NCBI GenBank assembly: GCA_043768465.1
Contig: JAYVKL010000045.1
Span: 342-64,341, forward strand
Direction: 5' to 3'
Length of the DNA stretch: 64,000 bases
From: Pyrinomonadaceae bacterium
Lineage (GTDB): Bacteria > Acidobacteriota > Blastocatellia > Pyrinomonadales > Pyrinomonadaceae
This document shows, in pieces, positions 13,696-58,351 of this stretch. The position numbers and the translations under genes were made by a program. The notes under the pieces are model-generated. The model was not told the origin of the DNA. It saw only the letters and a list, made by a program, of their open reading frames with translations, and did no database searches. The first letter of the stretch is position 1. Every line of letters begins with the position of its first letter.

Positions 13696-13768
13696 AATGG
13701 TAAATGGTAAATGGTAAATGGTAAATACAAGATTCATATTTACCATTTACCATTTACCATTTGCCATT
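13696..13768. repeat. 73-nt hairpin: 32-bp stem of GGTAAAT heptamers, 9-nt loop
   Basis: Left arm 13696-13727 is aatggtaaatggtaaatggtaaatggtaaata. The right arm 13737-13768 is its complement with one G.T position. Loop is caagattca. It fills the ImmA-like/PP2C spacer. Confidence 0.9.
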
Positions 13769-13772
13769 TGAA

Positions 13773-18982: not shown

Positions 18983-21424
18983 TTAAAATCCGAAACTCAA
19001 ACCGATTCTGCCGTTGCGATCAAACGTGCGAAAGCCATTTTCGTAATAATTGTCGCCGAACAGATTTTCAATCGTGCCGAAGACGCGCAGATTAAAGCGT
19101 TCGCCTTTCAAAGGGAAATTATAGCCGCCCGTCAAATCGCCGCGCCGGTTGCCGCGAAAGCGATAAATATAGGTCGAAAAATTCTGCCCGCTGAAAATCG
19201 GCGCGAGATAATCGCTCGACGCGAGCAAGTCGAAATTCACCCAGGCGCGTTTGAACCGCTGCGTCGCCACCAACGTAAATTGATGTTTCGGAATTCCCAA
19301 AGTTTCGATGTTTCGATTGGAAGCAACCTGCGGAACGCGCTGGTCGCTGTTCGTAAAAGTGTAGGATGCGAAAATGTCAGTCGAGTCGGTGGCGCGAGCT
19401 TGCCCGCTGAATTCGCCGCCGCGAGCGATGCCGCCTTTCGTGTTCAAATAACCGCCGAAATCGCGCCGCGTTGTTCCGATATTCGGGACGACGTTGCCGA
19501 AACCAATCGTCTTAATCAATTTCGTATAGAAATAAACCGCCGTTAATTTGGCGCGATTGCCGAACAAATTTTGTTCGATGCCGCCGTCAAAAGCGATGGT
19601 TTTTTCCGGCTTTAGATTCGGGTCGCCGAGTGCTTCAAAACGCGGGTTAGTGTCAGGAAAGGTGAAAGTATTGTAAAAAGTTCCGAAACGTTCAAAAAGC
19701 GACGGCACGCGGTAGCCGTTGCCGACGTGAGCGCGGATTTTCGTTCCCGAACGGTTGAAAAAATACGAAGCCGCGCCGTCAAAAGTATAGGCGTTCGGCG
19801 GATTCGCCAGCGTCAGATTCGTGTAAGGCGCATTATTCAAACTGAAGCTCGGCGTTTTCAGATTGAAAAATTGAGCGCGAAAACCGCCCGCCAATTGCAG
19901 TCTGTTTCTGAATAATTTCAAGAGATTCTGCGCGTAAATCGTGTTGCTCGACTGTTTGGCGCGGGCGAAAAAATTGTTCGTGCCGCTCGGCGTGAAACCG
20001 TCGTTGCCGTATTTTTCGTTCTCGAATTCGTAGCCGACGGTCGTCTCAAGGTAGCGGCTCGGTGTCCAATTTAATTGCCCGTTCGCCGTATTTATCAAAC
20101 CTTTGAAAACGCTCGTCGAAGCACTCTGAAAACCGCTGCCGAGAATGCCGTTGTCGTTTTTGCGCCGCGTTCGCAAGCCTTGATACGAAGCGCGAAAAAA
20201 TAATTTGTCGGTGATAACCTGGGTCAGCGCGAGTTGTCCGACCAAGGTCTGCGATTTTTGAAAAGCGTCCGGGTCGTTTACGTCCGGGAGAAAGTTGGCG
20301 TTGCCGCGATTCGTAACATTTTGCCCGTTATCGAGACGTTTCAACTGTTCACGCGAAAGCGGCACGGCATCGAGAATTTCCGAGGCTGAAGGAAAAACTG
20401 CACCGAAAAAGGTATCGGGACTCGAATTCAAACGGACGTAAGCGTCGGTGACGAAAATTCTGCCGGAGATGTTGGTTTTAGAAAACGGATTGTATTCGAC
20501 GCGAGTTTGAAAATTCGTGTTGTGCGCGTCGTCCTGCCCGTCAATTCCTTTGGTGTAAACCGTCCGCGCACCGCCGACGTTAAAGCCGATTTTGCCGTCT
20601 TTTGTGCCGTCGGAAATGTTGGCGCGAAAGCGTCCCAAACCGTAACCGCCGAACGCGCCGCCGACTTGTCCGTGAAAGCCGGGCTGCGGTTTCGGAGTCT
20701 GAAAATCAATCGTGCCGCCGACGGCGTTCGTGCCGTAAAGCGACGAACCCGAACCGCGCAGAACTTCGATTCGATCAACGCTCGTCAATGTAAAATCCGA
20801 CAAAAACGGCGACGCATCGCCCGTAATCGCCGCCGCGTCCCGAAACCGAATCCCGTCAATCAAAATCGCCGTATCCTGATTTCGCAAACCGCGAGTTTTG
20901 ATATTCGCCGTCCGCCCGAAACCGCCGAGCTGCTGAACGCGAAAACCCGGAATCGAGCGCAACGATTCGACCAAAGAGAAATCGGCGCGGTCGCGTAATT
21001 CCTGCGCCCCGATGATGTTGACGGTTTTGGAAACTTCGTCGAGCATTTGCGTTGTGCCGGAGGCAATCACCGAAACTTCTTCTCGGATCGGTTGATAAGA
21101 ATTTATTTGCAGATCAACTGTTTCCAGTCCTTCGTATAGCAAATTAACCGTTATCGTCGGCGAAACTCCGTTTTTATTTTCTCGAACCCGACTTGCCGAC
21201 AGGAGATATTTTCCCGCCTGCATTCCGCTGAAATTATATTCACCGTTTGTATTGGTTGAGGTTGTGTATTTAACTTTATTATCCTTTTCAGAAATCAAAG
21301 TAACTGTTGCATTAGCGATTACGCCATTTTCACCAGTAACTTTCCCTTTCAGATAAATGCTTTCTTGTGCAAAAATTCCGATTGTCAAAAAGCAAATTAA
21401 ACTTAAAACTTTTATAGTCTTCAT
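18983..21424 (-). CDS. TonB-dependent outer-membrane receptor with carboxypeptidase-regulatory-like N-domain (probable BtuB-type cobalamin receptor)
   Basis: 813 aa. Signal peptide, CarboxypepD_reg-like segment (TVTLISEKDN...TNGEYNF), plug (VSKTVNIIGAQELRDR ... RVQQLGGFGR), beta-barrel and terminal ...GLSFGF. The cobalamin assignment comes from the riboswitch immediately upstream. Confidence 0.85.
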   Translation of the reverse strand: MKTIKVLSLICFLTIGIFAQESIYLKGKVTGENGVIANATVTLISEKDNKVKYTTSTNTNGEYNFSGMQAGKYLLSASRVRENKNGVSPTITVNLLYEGLETVDLQINSYQPIREEVSVIASGTTQMLDEVSKTVNIIGAQELRDRADFSLVESLRSIPGFRVQQLGGFGRTANIKTRGLRNQDTAILIDGIRFRDAAAITGDASPFLSDFTLTSVDRIEVLRGSGSSLYGTNAVGGTIDFQTPKPQPGFHGQVGGAFGGYGLGRFRANISDGTKDGKIGFNVGGARTVYTKGIDGQDDAHNTNFQTRVEYNPFSKTNISGRIFVTDAYVRLNSSPDTFFGAVFPSASEILDAVPLSREQLKRLDNGQNVTNRGNANFLPDVNDPDAFQKSQTLVGQLALTQVITDKLFFRASYQGLRTRRKNDNGILGSGFQSASTSVFKGLINTANGQLNWTPSRYLETTVGYEFENEKYGNDGFTPSGTNNFFARAKQSSNTIYAQNLLKLFRNRLQLAGGFRAQFFNLKTPSFSLNNAPYTNLTLANPPNAYTFDGAASYFFNRSGTKIRAHVGNGYRVPSLFERFGTFYNTFTFPDTNPRFEALGDPNLKPEKTIAFDGGIEQNLFGNRAKLTAVYFYTKLIKTIGFGNVVPNIGTTRRDFGGYLNTKGGIARGGEFSGQARATDSTDIFASYTFTNSDQRVPQVASNRNIETLGIPKHQFTLVATQRFKRAWVNFDLLASSDYLAPIFSGQNFSTYIYRFRGNRRGDLTGGYNFPLKGERFNLRVFGTIENLFGDNYYENGFRTFDRNGRIGLSFGF

Positions 21425-21444
21425 ATTTTTCCTTTTCCGCCCAG

Positions 21445-21655
21445 CGCGGAAGTGGTTTCGGTAATAAACAAGCCGCGTAAAGTTCCCGACTTTGCGATTT
21501 TAGATTTTAGATTTTGGATCGGAAGATTCGCCAACTCTAAATCTGAGCCACTGAAATCAAACAATCCAAAATCCAAAATCGGTAATCTAAAATCGCCTTC
21601 ACGGTTGCGTGGGCAGTCGCGGATTTGCGCCGCGTTCCTTTGCGCCGGTTGCTCG
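21445..21655 (-). promoter_or_regulatory. Cobalamin riboswitch (leader of the TonB receptor gene)
   Basis: Minus-strand reading gives aaaGGAAcgcGGCGcaAATCCgcgaCtGcCCaCGCAACcGTGaagg. A long hairpin follows at 21496-21594, then the B12-box-like AAAGTCGGGAAC... This parallels the riboswitch at 24600-24806. Confidence 0.7.
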
Positions 21656-21656
21656 T

Positions 21657-21738
21657 CTTTGTTCTGAGTTCAAACTTCAGTTTGCTTGCCGCCAGCGAAG
21701 CGCCGCGGCTTTTGCACGCTGAAGCGTGAACTCAAAAC
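21657..21738 (+). repeat. Rep-A element copy B
   Basis: ctttgttctgagttca-CAAACTTCAGTTTG-..CCGCCAGCGAAGCGCCGCGG..-CACGCTGAAGCGTG-aactcaaaac. Abuts the ATPase stop codon. Confidence 0.8.
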
Positions 21739-21739
21739 T

Positions 21740-22510
21740 TTAGTAAATCGTCGTCATTCGTCTTTTTCCGCTCGCCGGATTTTCGTCGAGCAAAACTCTG
21801 ACGTTGAAAACCTCCTGTAAGTTTTCGCGGGTCAAAACCGTTTCGGGCGCACCTTTTGATAAAATCGCGCCGTTTTTTAATAAAATAATTTCGTCGGCAA
21901 ATTCCGATGCCAAATTCAAATCGTGCGTGATAACGATTGCCGCGCTTTCGCAGCTTTCGCAACGCGACTTTATCAGGCGAAACAGCAACACCTGATGCGC
22001 CAAATCGAGATTTGCCGTCGGTTCGTCGAGCAGTAAAATTCGCGCTCCCGTCGTCAAAGCTCTGGCTAGAACGACGCGCTGCCGCTCGCCGCCGGAAAGC
22101 CGGTTCATCAAACGATTTTCGTAATTCGTCAAATCGCACTGCTCTAAATTACTCAAAGCAATCTGCCAATCGTCGCTCGTTTCCCAACCGAAAGCCGCGC
22201 CGTGCGCGAATCTACCTGCCAGCACGAATTCTAAAACCGACACGGGAAAACTCGTTTCCGTTTCTTGCGCGATAACGGCGATTTCGCGGGCGATTTCGCG
22301 GCGGGAAAAATCTTTGACAGGTTTGCCGTTTAATAAAATTGTGCCTTTCGCTACCGGCAAACCGCCGTTCAAAGATTTCAGAACCGTTGTTTTCCCTGCG
22401 CCGTTCGCTCCTAATAGAGCGATGATTTTCCCCGTTTCCAATTTAAACGAAACGTCCTGCACGACCGCAAACACGCCGTAGTTTATCGAGATGTTTTGAA
22501 CTTCGAGCAT
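21740..22510 (-). CDS. ABC transporter ATP-binding protein (BtuD/FecE type)
   Basis: Walker A GANGAGKTT, signature LSGGERQR, Walker B ILLLDEP. Confidence 0.9.
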   Translation of the reverse strand: MLEVQNISINYGVFAVVQDVSFKLETGKIIALLGANGAGKTTVLKSLNGGLPVAKGTILLNGKPVKDFSRREIAREIAVIAQETETSFPVSVLEFVLAGRFAHGAAFGWETSDDWQIALSNLEQCDLTNYENRLMNRLSGGERQRVVLARALTTGARILLLDEPTANLDLAHQVLLFRLIKSRCESCESAAIVITHDLNLASEFADEIILLKNGAILSKGAPETVLTRENLQEVFNVRVLLDENPASGKRRMTTIY

Positions 22511-22586: not shown

Positions 22587-23561
22587 TTAATTCTTCCTCA
22601 ATAAATAAATAAACAACGGCGCACCGATTAGAGCGGTAATCGCGCCGACGGGCAATTCACGCGGCGCGATTGCCGTTCGCGCCATCGTGTCCGCCGCGAC
22701 GACGAAAACCGCGCCCGCCAATGCCGAAAACGGAATCACCAGACGATTATCGCTGCCAATCGTCAGACGAATCAGATGCGGCACAATCAGCCCGACGTAA
22801 CCGACCGAACCGCTCGCTGCAACCGAAATGCCGACGAGTGCCGAAGCCGTCGTGAAAACAATCAGGCGAACTTTACTGGTTTCCACGCCGAAATCGAAGG
22901 CATCGCGCTCGCCGATCATCATCAAATTCAACGCTTTCGCCTGCGAAGATAAAATAATCGTCCCGCCAATCGCGCAGATCAGAGTCGTGTAAAATCCGTT
23001 TTTCGTCGCTTGCGACAAATCGCCGAGCAGCCAGAACGTAAACGAGCGTAGTTTTGCCGCGTCCAAAAGCGTCGTCAGCAAAACCAGAATCGAAGACAAA
23101 AACGTCGTCACGATCACGCCCGCTAAAACGAGGCGTTCGACGCTCATTCCGGCGCGGCTTTTCGCCATTTGATAAACCGTCAAAGTCGCCAAACCTGCGC
23201 CGGCGATGGCGAAAATCGGACGCGCCCAAGCGGAATCGGCAAAGAAAACAAAAGCCAGCATCGTTCCCAAAGCCGCGCCGTTCGACACGCCCAACAGATA
23301 CGGCTCCGCCAAAGGATTCCGCAAAAGCGATTGCAGCGACGCGCCCGCCAACGCCAGACTCGCCCCGACGGCTCCGCCGAGCAAAACTCGCGGCAGACGA
23401 ATATCAAAAAGAATCGTCTGCTGATTCTCGTCCAATTCAAAGAACGCGAGCTTTTCACTGCCAAATAAAACGGCAATCGTCAAAACAATCAACAGCAAAA
23501 TCAGGAGACCAACGCCAAAACGCCAACCTCGAACCTTGAACCTTGAACCTTGAATTTTCAC
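22587..23561 (-). CDS. FecCD/BtuC-family ABC permease
   Basis: Typical BtuC pattern (LPRVLLGGAVGASLALAGASLQSLLRNPLAEPYLLGVS). Start placed at GTG 23561, which overlaps the upstream stop as GTGA. The first codons are encoded by GGTTCAA heptamers (KIQGSRFKVRGWRF). Confidence 0.85.
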   Translation of the reverse strand: MKIQGSRFKVRGWRFGVGLLILLLIVLTIAVLFGSEKLAFFELDENQQTILFDIRLPRVLLGGAVGASLALAGASLQSLLRNPLAEPYLLGVSNGAALGTMLAFVFFADSAWARPIFAIAGAGLATLTVYQMAKSRAGMSVERLVLAGVIVTTFLSSILVLLTTLLDAAKLRSFTFWLLGDLSQATKNGFYTTLICAIGGTIILSSQAKALNLMMIGERDAFDFGVETSKVRLIVFTTASALVGISVAASGSVGYVGLIVPHLIRLTIGSDNRLVIPFSALAGAVFVVAADTMARTAIAPRELPVGAITALIGAPLFIYLLRKN

Positions 23562-24484
23562 TCGTGCAAATCCTTCGCCAGCAGTTCGAGCGCGTCCACG
23601 ACGCGCGGACCCGGACGCGAAAGCCAAGCGGCGTTAAGGTGAAAAACTCGCTTGTTTTTGACCGCGCCGGAATTTACAAAAACGTCGTTCGGTTCTCTAT
23701 TATCTTCGCTGTCCGACAAAATTATCGCGTCGGGATTTAACGCCAGAGCCGTTTCCTTGCTCAGTTTTGGATACGCCGCTGCGACCTCTTTCGTCGCCGA
23801 TTCGCCGCCCGCCCGTTCGATAATTTCGGTGATAAACGAATCTTTGCCGACGGTGAACAGCGGCTCTTTCGAGATTTGCACGAAGACTTTTGTTTTCGGT
23901 TTGTCTTTGACTTTTTCGGCGACGGCTCGGACGCGCCTTTCCAAATCGGCGATTAACTTTTCGGCGTTCGTCGGCGTTCCCAAAATATCGCCGAGTTGTT
24001 TTAAGTTTCGCAAAATACCTTCAAAATCATTCGGGTTGGTGATGAAAACGGCGATATTCTGCCGTTCGAGCGTGGTCGTGAAATTTTCGATTTGCGAGGC
24101 GGTCGAAACGAAAACGATCTGCGGCTTGAGCGCGATAATCGTTTCGATATTCGGATTGATCGTGTCGCCGATTTTCGGGATTCTCTGTGCCTCCGCCGGA
24201 TAATCGCAAAAAGAAGTTACGCCGACGAGTTTGTCGCCCGCGCCGACGGCAAAAATGTTTTCCGTCAGATTCGGAGCGAGGGAGACGGCGCGGTTAATCG
24301 TCAGCGGAATTTTTATCGTTCTGCCCAAATCGTCGGTTATTTCGCGCGTCGGCAAAGCGGTTGGCACGGCTTGATCGGCACTCCGGCAATCGGTCAGCGC
24401 GAGCAGCGCGAACAGCAGAAAATACGACGCGGCGGCGCGTTTGAAAAGATGGCGATTTGAATGGGTAAGTTTCGTGGTCAACAA
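23558..24484 (-). CDS. Periplasmic substrate-binding protein, BtuF/FhuD fold (probable cobalamin-binding lipoprotein)
   Basis: Signal/lipobox-like LLALTDC. RAVSLAPNLTENIFAVGAGDKLVGVTSFCDYP is typical of PF01497-like binding proteins. TTG start. A cobalamin riboswitch lies upstream. Confidence 0.8.
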   Translation of the reverse strand: MLTTKLTHSNRHLFKRAAASYFLLFALLALTDCRSADQAVPTALPTREITDDLGRTIKIPLTINRAVSLAPNLTENIFAVGAGDKLVGVTSFCDYPAEAQRIPKIGDTINPNIETIIALKPQIVFVSTASQIENFTTTLERQNIAVFITNPNDFEGILRNLKQLGDILGTPTNAEKLIADLERRVRAVAEKVKDKPKTKVFVQISKEPLFTVGKDSFITEIIERAGGESATKEVAAAYPKLSKETALALNPDAIILSDSEDNREPNDVFVNSGAVKNKRVFHLNAAWLSRPGPRVVDALELLAKDLHE

Positions 24485-24599
24485 ATAAAAAATCCTGCCT
24501 TATAATGCTTTTCGCAATCGGGACGAAAGGCAGTGCGGACAAGATTTTTTATTCACATTCGCGGAAAAAGGAGATAAAACAAAATGACACCCGTTAAAG

Positions 24600-24806
24600 C
24601 CAAACGTCCTGACGCGGGACGATTTTCGGCTAAAAAACTTCAGACAGGTTTCCAGACTTTGCAATTAGCAGTCATCAGTTAGCAGTTATCATAAAATCAA
24701 AATGATAACTGCTAGCTGATGACTGCTAATTGCTTCACTGTGGCGCGACCGTGCGGGATTGACACCCGACTTTCCCATATCTTTGCCGCTTTTTTCAAAA
24801 AGCGGC
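24600..24806 (-). promoter_or_regulatory. Cobalamin riboswitch (leader of the btuF/C/D-like operon)
   Basis: Minus-strand reading gives GGGAAagtcGGGTGtcAATCCcgcaCgGtCgCGCCACaGTGaagc. A 73-nt hairpin follows at 24661-24733, then the B12 box AAAGTCTGGAAACCTGTC (24660-24641). Downstream is a terminator-like stem ctgcctt...aaggcag plus U-run (~24490-24535). Confidence 0.8.
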
Positions 24807-24977
24807 GCATCCGAAGCGTTTTAGGCTGAAAAGAACAAACCGAAATTTACCGACGAATCTGTAAATAAGGTGAAAGGCAACTTAGCACGATGAATCGTCA
24901 CAAGTCAAAAGCAATCGAATTTTGCGCTGATTTTGCTTGATCTTCGGCTTCGCTTGCGGCTATCCTGAAAAGGTCGA

Positions 24978-58267: not shown

Positions 58268-58278
58268 AATTCTGTTCA

Positions 58279-58351
58279 GGTTTCAGGTTTCAGGTTTCAG
58301 GTTTCAGATTGCATTTTCCAATCTGAAACCTGAAACCTGAAACCTGAAACC
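58279..58351. repeat. 73-nt perfect hairpin: 32-bp stem of GGTTTCA heptamers, 9-nt loop
   Basis: 58279-58310 is ggtttcaggtttcaggtttcaggtttcagatt. 58320-58351 is its exact reverse complement. Loop is gcattttcc. It occupies most of the 96-nt rplU-rpmA spacer. Confidence 0.95.

Follow-up and report, generated by a model that had tools for sequence, protein, structure and literature searches.

In classical cobalamin (Cbl) riboswitches of the Cbl-I class, the P7-P11 extension folds back and helps to shape the adenosyl pocket, whereas in Cbl-II riboswitches and in the yvrC riboswitch of Bacillus subtilis, an atypical Cbl-I/Cbl-II hybrid, P6 bears a simple stem-loop pointing away from the core (PMC7367189). 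Heptamer repeats have been described elsewhere: the inverted pairs of GGGAATC repeats in Xanthomonas are always convergent (Rehm et al. 2015, PMC4692102), and TAACTGA repeats occur in Beggiatoaceae, cyanobacteria and Bacteroidetes, those of Beggiatoaceae being almost all direct (MacGregor 2015, PMC4679880). Heptamer palindromes and cobalamin riboswitches are each already known, and our literature search turned up no description of the repeats within the aptamer of a riboswitch. Here we describe a B12-uptake locus in which two cobalamin riboswitch leaders each carry a hairpin built of 7-nt units. The locus lies in a 64,000-nt stretch (the window) of contig JAYVKL010000045.1 from a soil bacterium of the Pyrinomonadaceae (Acidobacteriota, Blastocatellia; assembly GCA_043768465.1). 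We refer to this genome as G000, to the genomes compared with it as G001 to G018 and further G numbers, and to individual extracted stretches by L numbers.

The nearest precedent for heptamers in a functional RNA comes from cyanobacteria, where the RNase P RNA gene of heterocyst-forming species reportedly contains STRR heptanucleotide repeats, which are said to lie in P12; here the phylum and the units are different, and the host is a riboswitch rather than a ribozyme. The B12 element itself is said to have facultative, variable stem-loops. These, like the expansion segments of ribosomal RNA (rRNA), are lineage-specific helices at permissive peripheral positions of a conserved core, as are the hairpins described here. 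Unlike an rRNA expansion segment, the helix added in Pyrinomonadaceae is a genome-wide simple-sequence repeat that is swapped wholesale between sister species.

Along the window's minus strand the order is leader, btuF, btuC, btuD, leader and TonB-dependent receptor gene, so that each leader stands 5' of genes of the B12-transport type (Peripla_BP_2, FecCD and ABC_tran genes in one case, the TonB-dependent receptor gene in the other). When the 4.5-Mb G000 assembly was searched with the Rfam cobalamin model RF00174 (cmscan; gathering score 31.5 bits), these two leaders were the only matches. The btuFCD leader matched over the full model (positions 1-189) at 24626-24829(-) with 38.0 bits. The receptor leader matched locally (model positions 45-169) at 21480-21640(-) with 26.6 bits, which is below the gathering score. 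An initial reading of the window from its letters alone (the sequence-only reading) had called both leaders cobalamin riboswitches; the score upholds this for the btuFCD leader and falls short for the receptor leader, though orthologues of the latter reach 32.9-94 bits. That both are working cobalamin riboswitches is nevertheless the best explanation, and we predict them to be so.

In the cmscan alignments the two hairpins appear as inserts at the same model position ([51] for the btuFCD leader and [80] for the receptor leader), and the base of the btuFCD hairpin, GCAA/UUGC, is aligned to the second P6 helix of the model. Because these inserts are distal to the second P6 helix, both hairpins top P6 and lie outside the core helices, as had been supposed when they were assigned to the variable peripheral stem. 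We consider it likely that the heptamer hairpin is an expansion segment on a permissive P6 helix, inert or at most stem-stabilising, and that B12 sensing would proceed independently of it. The parts of the two aptamers, all read from the minus strand, are as follows.

24626..24829, minus strand: cobalamin riboswitch aptamer of the btuF-btuC-btuD leader, with P1, P2 hairpin, P3-P6 core and B12 box (cmscan).
24785..24806, minus strand: P2 hairpin GCCGCUUUUUGAAAAAAGCGGC (cmscan); its sequence varies among congeners but the hairpin persists, except in G015, where P2 has been deleted.
24738..24740, minus strand: P6 5' strand CAG, pairing with CUG at 24653-24655; the middle pair covaries between A-U and U-A in 17 of 17 congeners.
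24661..24733, minus strand: 73-nt heptamer-arm hairpin forming the P6 extension, with units CAGUCAU, CAGCUAG and CAGUUAU.
24643..24660, minus strand: B12 box AAAGUCUGGAAACCUGUC, including the P6 3' strand (cmscan posterior probability '*'), conserved across congeners.
21480..21640, minus strand: second cobalamin riboswitch aptamer, in the TonB-dependent receptor leader, without P2 (RF00174, 26.6 bits); its B12 box, too, is aligned with high posterior probability.
21494..21596, minus strand: GAUUUUR-unit hairpin on the receptor-leader P6, 39 bp including 6 G.U, with asymmetric arms.

The btuFCD-leader hairpin, GCAATTAGCAG...CTGCTAATTGC, fills exactly the 73 nt between ...GCGCCACAGUGAA and AAAGUCUGGAAACCUGUC, and we confirmed both the coordinates and the sequence given for it in the sequence-only reading. 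As sense RNA it is predicted to form 31 bp around a loop of 9 nt, with a single C.A mismatch (-49.2 kcal/mol, z = -12.9 relative to shuffles). What had been named its CAGTCAT unit is a degenerate family (CAGUCAU, CAGCUAG, CAGUUAU) and corresponds to the TAACTGA family on the opposite strand, the strand on which CAGTTAT/CAGTCAT matches the published repeat. The receptor-leader hairpin likewise stands where it had been placed, at 21496-21594 (99 nt, or 103 nt with the closing G-C pairs at 21494-21596). Its units are GATTTTR (-39.7 kcal/mol, z = -6.9 relative to shuffles), and it is imperfect, with three units in one arm, four in the other and a central part of 40 nt. The period is well defined: the best autocorrelation lag was 7 in all four arms (identity 0.64-0.80), a value reached at any lag from 2 to 12 by at most 7 of 10,000 shuffles, and the program TRF returned period 7 or 14 at both loci.

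Identical hairpins are present in seven independent assemblies that encode identical BtuD, and they are therefore not assembly artefacts. Only two single-nucleotide polymorphisms (SNPs) separate these assemblies. One is in the spacer between btuD and the receptor riboswitch, and the other, the sole strain-level SNP inside an aptamer, turns C to U in the imperfect 3' strand of P1 and leaves the position pairable as G.U. BLAST of each hairpin against the whole G000 genome gave arm-to-arm matches only and no second full-length copy. We also noted weak sigma-70-like hexamers in each arm of the btuF hairpin (TTAGCA, a 16-nt spacer and TATCAT, 9 of 12 positions; 24665-24692 on the plus strand and 24702-24729 on the minus strand). 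These are probably due to chance; the minus-strand site, if active, would start transcripts inside the aptamer.

In its architecture the btuFCD leader resembles yvrC. Both have a P2 loop-stem-loop module and a simple P6 hairpin in place of P7-P11, the hairpin here being single and unbranched, and both stand upstream of a btuF-type uptake operon of the ATP-binding cassette (ABC) class. The P6 hairpin of the btuFCD leader differs in consisting of 73 nt of heptamer repeats, which vary by species. The receptor leader has a core resembling that of the adenosylcobalamin riboswitches of class II (AdoCbl-II/Cbl-II, RF01689; threshold 36.5 bits): it too is without P2, and its orthologue in G009, which has no insert, is an 81-nt aptamer that matches RF01689 over the full length with 45.2 bits. 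It departs from that class in the 109-nt insert in its G000 P6 loop, its best clan match being the local one to RF00174, and in that the corresponding site of five congeners is taken up by a canonical Cbl-I extension. In the correct order and orientation, the GCCACUG...GGGAAGG pair of Cbl-I is absent from both G000 inserts. The 40-nt centre of the receptor hairpin does contain CAGUGGC, which we considered as a relic of the canonical extension, but its orientation and its order relative to GGAAG are wrong and we regard it as a coincidence. The statement in the sequence-only reading that cobalamin riboswitches tolerate a variable peripheral stem at this position holds for the Cbl-II and yvrC types with their simple P6 stem-loop and needs qualification for classical Cbl-I, in which the extension shapes the adenosyl pocket.

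We compared the locus with that of 18 genomes of the same genus, most of which share both riboswitches, separated by about 3.2 kb. All of these relatives are metagenome-assembled genomes, and the structures discussed are predicted. The btuF-type leader was recovered from 17 genomes. Its core, GGGAAAG.CGGGUGAAAAUCCCGCACGGUCGCGCCAC[A/U]GU ... AGUC[U/A]GGAAACCUG...GUUUUUUAGCC, is nearly invariant, while BtuF is only about 60% identical between most species. RNAalifold identified compensatory double changes in P5 (GC to AU and the reverse, in 5 sequences) and in P6 (AU to UA and the reverse, in 4 of 16). In the wider comparison the P6 change is present in 5 of 17 congener sequences. This conservation of the core, together with the compensatory changes, indicates intact aptamer cores whose structure is preserved by selection, and it supports the earlier suggestion that the repeats have not destroyed core function.

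The P6 insert, between ...GU and AGUC..., is by comparison hypervariable. In 14 of the 17 species it consists of period-7 arms totalling 78-99 nt, and the exceptions are short: 56 nt with two units in G015, 31 nt forming a single CAGTTAA/TTAACTG stem in G018, and 3 nt in G010. The units are of the TAACTGA type in G000 and G012, GATTTTG/A in G001, G004, G006, G008, G011, G013 and G017, AAAAGKY in G007, AATTAAA in G009 and G015, CAAAGTC in G016 and G003, and GAACGAT plus ATTCAGG in G014. A synteny search for further orthologues found the riboswitch next to glgC in only 3 of 80 loci, and of these three leaders one has a GGATGAA hairpin, one a GATTTTG hairpin and one (L104) an empty site. With GGATGAA included, at least seven unit families occupy this one P6 site. 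The insert-less G010 aptamer scores 54.8 bits against RF00174, above the G000 btuFCD leader. Because such natural null alleles exist, the hairpin appears to be dispensable, and we infer that it is functionally neutral.

The receptor-type leader, recovered from 16 genomes, is even more varied. Five species (G001, G013, G003, G006 and G016) have the canonical Cbl-I extension, GCCACUG...GGGAAGG, with scores of up to 94 bits, and the last three of these have an extra heptamer hairpin within the extension's optional 3' hairpin. Eight species (G000, G014, G005, G008, G011, G010, G012 and G017) have a heptamer hairpin alone, G004 and G015 have short non-heptamer hairpins, and G009 has no insert. Heptamer hairpins thus occupy the same two sites in most congeners, an outcome that agrees with the sequence-only reading. 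Syntenic orthologues of the G000 receptor leader score 32.9 (G008), 75 (G001) and 94 bits (G013) against RF00174, the receptor-leader P6 occurs in three compensatory states (C-G, U-A and A-U), and synteny with the B12 uptake genes is retained in all species. In outgroup genera within the class, the cobalamin riboswitches are canonical and score highly. In the receptor leader the heptamer hairpin has replaced the canonical Cbl-I extension, which the five species still have, and a shift in ligand preference or selectivity may have accompanied the replacement. Two stretches from other genera also have a heptamer-arm hairpin in the optional 3' hairpin of a canonical Cbl-I P6 extension, with CTGAGGA/TCAGTCC units in L016 (G025; 140-270) and CATTTGT/CATTGGT units in L031 (G027; 150-260).

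Because the aptamer flanks are conserved, individual changes in the inserts can be read directly. A tree built from BtuF, BtuC, BtuD and the receptor places G014 as the sister of G000, with identities of 81% for BtuF, 89% for BtuD and 93% for the receptor. The receptor hairpins of these two species have identical flanks; apart from four substitutions, exactly one 7-nt unit in the 3' arm separates them, as expected of unit slippage. Their btuF-leader flanks are about 93% identical, whereas everything between CAGUGA and AGUCUG is unrelated and the edges are sharp, which marks the replacement of a whole cassette. The G014 insert is (GAACGAU)4 followed by (AUUCAGG)4, the latter an abundant unit family in G014; its arms are non-complementary and it barely pairs (-15 kcal/mol). 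In the sister species G010 and G012 (L040 and L042) the loop of the receptor hairpin is exactly reverse-complemented, CAAAATAATAAATTG in one and CAATTTATTATTTTG in the other, and the 79-nt btuF-leader hairpin of G012 is missing from G010. Copying between loci is visible in G008, where the two riboswitches have hairpins that are 95% identical, loop included, while eight other GATTTTG hairpins there have unrelated loops. The 5' arm of the G012 receptor hairpin contains a nested element, about 150 nt long and bearing terminal inverted repeats (TTTAGAGGCGGTCTATGACCGCC...), that splits the aptamer (G012:C260:8831-9220). Outside the aptamers, the spacer between btuD and the receptor riboswitch (21641-21739) has a non-heptamer palindrome in G000 and an AATTCGT heptamer hairpin in G014, with nearly identical coding flanks. 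No target-site duplication was seen at the edges of replaced or filled sites in the riboswitch and RNase P P12 comparisons.

These hairpins belong to a repeat class that is spread through the genome. G000 has 288 strict period-7 arrays, compared with 2-28 for periods 5, 6, 8 and 9, and array length is unimodal with a median of 31 nt. Adjacent arrays are inverted in 36 of 51 pairs, and 35 of these 36 have a 5' arm richer in G than in C (examples are at 13696-13769 and 58275-58351 of the window), which matches the convergent rule of Xanthomonas; a C-rich arm followed by a G-rich one was found in none of the 51 adjacent pairs of any kind, those with arms of mixed families included. As in the Xanthomonas and Beggiatoaceae systems, the period is 7 and the repeats are mostly intergenic and differ in length between relatives. 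Unlike those systems, each genome here has many unit families, and the repeats also lie inside riboswitch aptamers and RNase P RNA. Heptamer hairpins also give spurious Rfam matches to microRNA-precursor families of plants and animals, with E-values down to 2e-8 (L038 1389-1468 and 4604-4714; window 21494-21594).

To see how such sites change between sister species, we compared 33 orthologous heptamer sites in 631 kb of G014 with G000. About four had the same unit family, about 15 had a different family between flanks that are 80-100% identical up to the edge, and 14 had no G000 array. Clean pairs of insertion and empty site were almost absent, most sites being replacements or unalignable; at other heptamer sites the two genomes differ by indels of 21 and 28 nt. 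Since these orthologous sites show the same pattern as the riboswitches, rewriting in place is the norm of this repeat class and not a peculiarity of riboswitches. Overall array density is similar (64 per Mb in G000 and 55 in G014), and the favoured families are not: AAACCTG arrays number 13.3 per Mb in G000 and 1.6 in G014, ACTCTCG arrays 8.4 and 0, and AATCTGG arrays 2.7 and 9.5. Many orthologous sites carry their own species' favourite, which is AAACCTG or ACTCTCG in G000 and AATCTGG or AATCCTG in G014.

The hairpins pair equally well on either strand. Taken together, the riboswitch inserts form 607 bp with 31 G.U as sense RNA and 613 bp with 39 G.U as antisense RNA, and some fold better as antisense, such as that of G016 (-22 kcal/mol for sense against -45 kcal/mol for antisense). 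The single mismatch of the G000 btuF hairpin is C.A in the mRNA and G.U on the other strand. Because sense and antisense fold equally well, complementarity is evidently maintained at the DNA level. We had considered RNA-level selection on the pairing of the riboswitch hairpins, and set it aside in view of the symmetry between strands in both base pairs and G.U counts.

RNase P RNA offers a useful comparison. Its P12 contains heptamer inserts of the GATTTTG type, 37-74 nt long, in 6 of 20 congeners (G010, G004, G008, G013, G006 and G002), and is a GAAA-capped stub in G000, G007 and G012. The P12 inserts pair in the sense RNA only, with 117 bp including 40 G.U, compared with 36 bp including 1 G.U for antisense; this is the pattern expected of an old insert that is held by pairing at the RNA level. 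Thiamine pyrophosphate (TPP) riboswitches, considered as a third host RNA, have a normal P3 in 17 of 19 matches, and the G000 assembly has no TPP riboswitch match. In the other two matches, in G014 (G014:C67:6110-6261) and G002, the P3 stem exceeds its usual length by about 50 nt and its period 7 is only weak (arms AATGACA, AATGATG and GATGACG).

The remaining features of the locus are listed here.

24576..24621, minus strand: putative expression platform (consensus scan). Its hairpin CGUCC-CGCGUCA-GGACG (24605-24621) is conserved in all congeners and overlaps a stem resembling a terminator, after which comes AUUUUGUUUU (24576-24608).
23558..24484, minus strand: gene for a btuF-like periplasmic binding protein, 308 aa (open reading frame; PF01497 Peripla_BP_2 on the identical gene in L242).
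22587..23561, minus strand: gene for a btuC-like permease, 324 aa as called in L242 (PF01032 FecCD). An in-frame AACCTTG array (x4.3; TRF) at 23525-23554 lies within its first codons, right after the btuF stop.
21740..22510, minus strand: gene for a btuD-like ABC ATPase, 256 aa (PF00005 ABC_tran).
21641..21739, minus strand: spacer between btuD and the receptor riboswitch, with a non-heptamer palindromic element (alignment of G000 with G014).
21431..21452, minus strand: hairpin CUUCCGC-GCUGG-GCGGAAAAGG, immediately preceding the ribosome-binding site AAGGA and the ATG (21424), and conserved in the receptor leaders of congeners; a candidate element for sequestering the ribosome-binding site.
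18983..21424, minus strand: TonB-dependent receptor gene, 813 aa (open reading frame; Pfam Plug and TonB_dep_Rec_b-barrel).

In our interpretation the helix distal to P6, which would project away from the ligand pocket, is filled by a local member of the heptamer palindromes found throughout Pyrinomonadaceae genomes. As RNA, this hairpin would be a coaxial extension of P6. At the DNA level the palindrome is rewritten in place, by single-unit slippage, loop inversion, cassette replacement, copying between riboswitches and loss, and selection meanwhile holds the flanking core constant. Four points weigh against this interpretation. No strain-level change was seen in the hairpins of the seven assemblies, and turnover is not fast at that scale; a hairpin occupies the btuF-leader site in 14-15 of 17 species, which could mean that a long P6 stem is favoured by selection; the receptor leader is below the Rfam gathering score and its P1 is mismatched; and where a Cbl-I extension was replaced, function was perhaps changed and not preserved.

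The sequence-only reading had proposed that the repeat process acts on pre-existing stem-loops and remodels or extends them. What sister species show is replacement of the whole cassette with sharp edges, not an older stem growing outwards, and the arms can be non-complementary (G014). On the proposed view, a process that recognises existing stem-loops (for example hairpin or cruciform tips) would remodel them into heptamer arrays, and P6 would be struck as a stem-loop. The same loops are indeed occupied repeatedly: P6 in two paralogous riboswitches, the optional 3' hairpin of Cbl-I extensions in three congeners and two other genera, and P12 of RNase P in six of 20 congeners. Intergenic sites, too, stay occupied by palindromes while their identity changes, and by a rough estimate arrays placed at random, at a density of about 64 per Mb, would land in any one 10-nt loop in far fewer than 1% of cases. 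Yet insertions outside the permissive apical loop of a functional RNA would be purged by purifying selection, for which reason survivorship alone can explain the location, and a single ancestral gain followed by rewriting in place can explain the occupancy. A minimal P6 of 3-4 bp and the tetraloop stem of P12 would be poor cruciform substrates, and filled sites replace the old apex without extending it, with no target duplication seen. Targeting of stem-loops is therefore possible, though we think it rather unlikely, and we infer that the location of the hairpins reflects tolerance. A related proposal, which we put forward only tentatively and hold to be improbable, is that heptamer arms are written by an active, polar process specific for unit families, and not by passive slippage. 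The tip of a palindrome would be cut, both 3' ends extended with G-rich heptamers from a trans-acting template or from other arrays, and the ends rejoined. Such a process would explain the G-rich 5' arm, the unique loops, the unimodal arms of about 31 nt, the arms of mixed families, the replaced cassettes and the genome-wide shifts of family.

We see little likelihood that selection maintains the hairpin for a role in the RNA, whether as a clamp on a very short P6, as a substitute for the lost P7-P11 or as an RNase III duplex that tunes mRNA level. The high occupancy across species, the stems of 31-38 near-perfect bp and the invariance of the hairpins in seven assemblies would all fit such a role. 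Stems of this length are long enough for RNase III. The sense-only pairing of RNase P P12 moreover makes RNA-level constraint possible in this lineage. Against this stand the null alleles G010, L104 and G009, whose cores are intact without an insert, the barely paired G014 insert, the inserts that fold better as antisense, the lack of an overall G.U excess on the sense strand and the absence of constraint on unit sequence. Transposition of a small mobile element into the riboswitches, of the type of miniature inverted-repeat transposable elements (MITE) or repetitive extragenic palindromes (REP), strikes us as less plausible still. Exact 33-35-nt arms of GATTTTG-GATTTTA-GATTTTG-GATTTTG are repeated across dozens of G008 and G011 loci, the abundance of unit families differs sharply between sister species, and the copying between the two G008 riboswitches could be taken in the same sense. 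But the G000 hairpins have no second full-length copy in the genome, the loop is unique at each locus examined, the edges show no duplication and the two arms can belong to different families, and we do not place the hairpins among elements of the MITE or REP type. It is least credible, and in our judgement very improbable, that one or both leaders are decaying riboswitch relics whose repeats fill dead DNA. The low score and imperfect P1 of the receptor leader and the split G012 receptor aptamer would suit this explanation, whereas the conserved cores with their compensatory changes, among them the three states of the receptor-leader P6, the synteny kept with B12 uptake genes in all species and a lone aptamer SNP that preserves pairing speak against it. 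An expansion segment that is rewritten in place on a permissive P6 remains the interpretation that we favour.

For annotation, the consequence is that such inserts drag genuine riboswitches under Rfam thresholds, as with the 26.6 bits of the receptor leader here against 31.5. The conserved aptamer flanks provide exact, selectable boundaries by which individual repeat events become readable, and these events follow rules that simple slippage leaves unexplained: the polarity of the arms, their length and the species shifts in the favoured unit family. If the arms are written by an active process, the P6 of riboswitches and the P12 of RNase P would report on it naturally and selectably. This one genus also presents a natural allelic series at the P6 of two B12 riboswitches, running from the Cbl-I extension through a minimal AdoCbl-II form to at least seven unrelated hairpins of about 80 nt, and the series is a ready test of how much weight a peripheral element has in ligand choice and folding.

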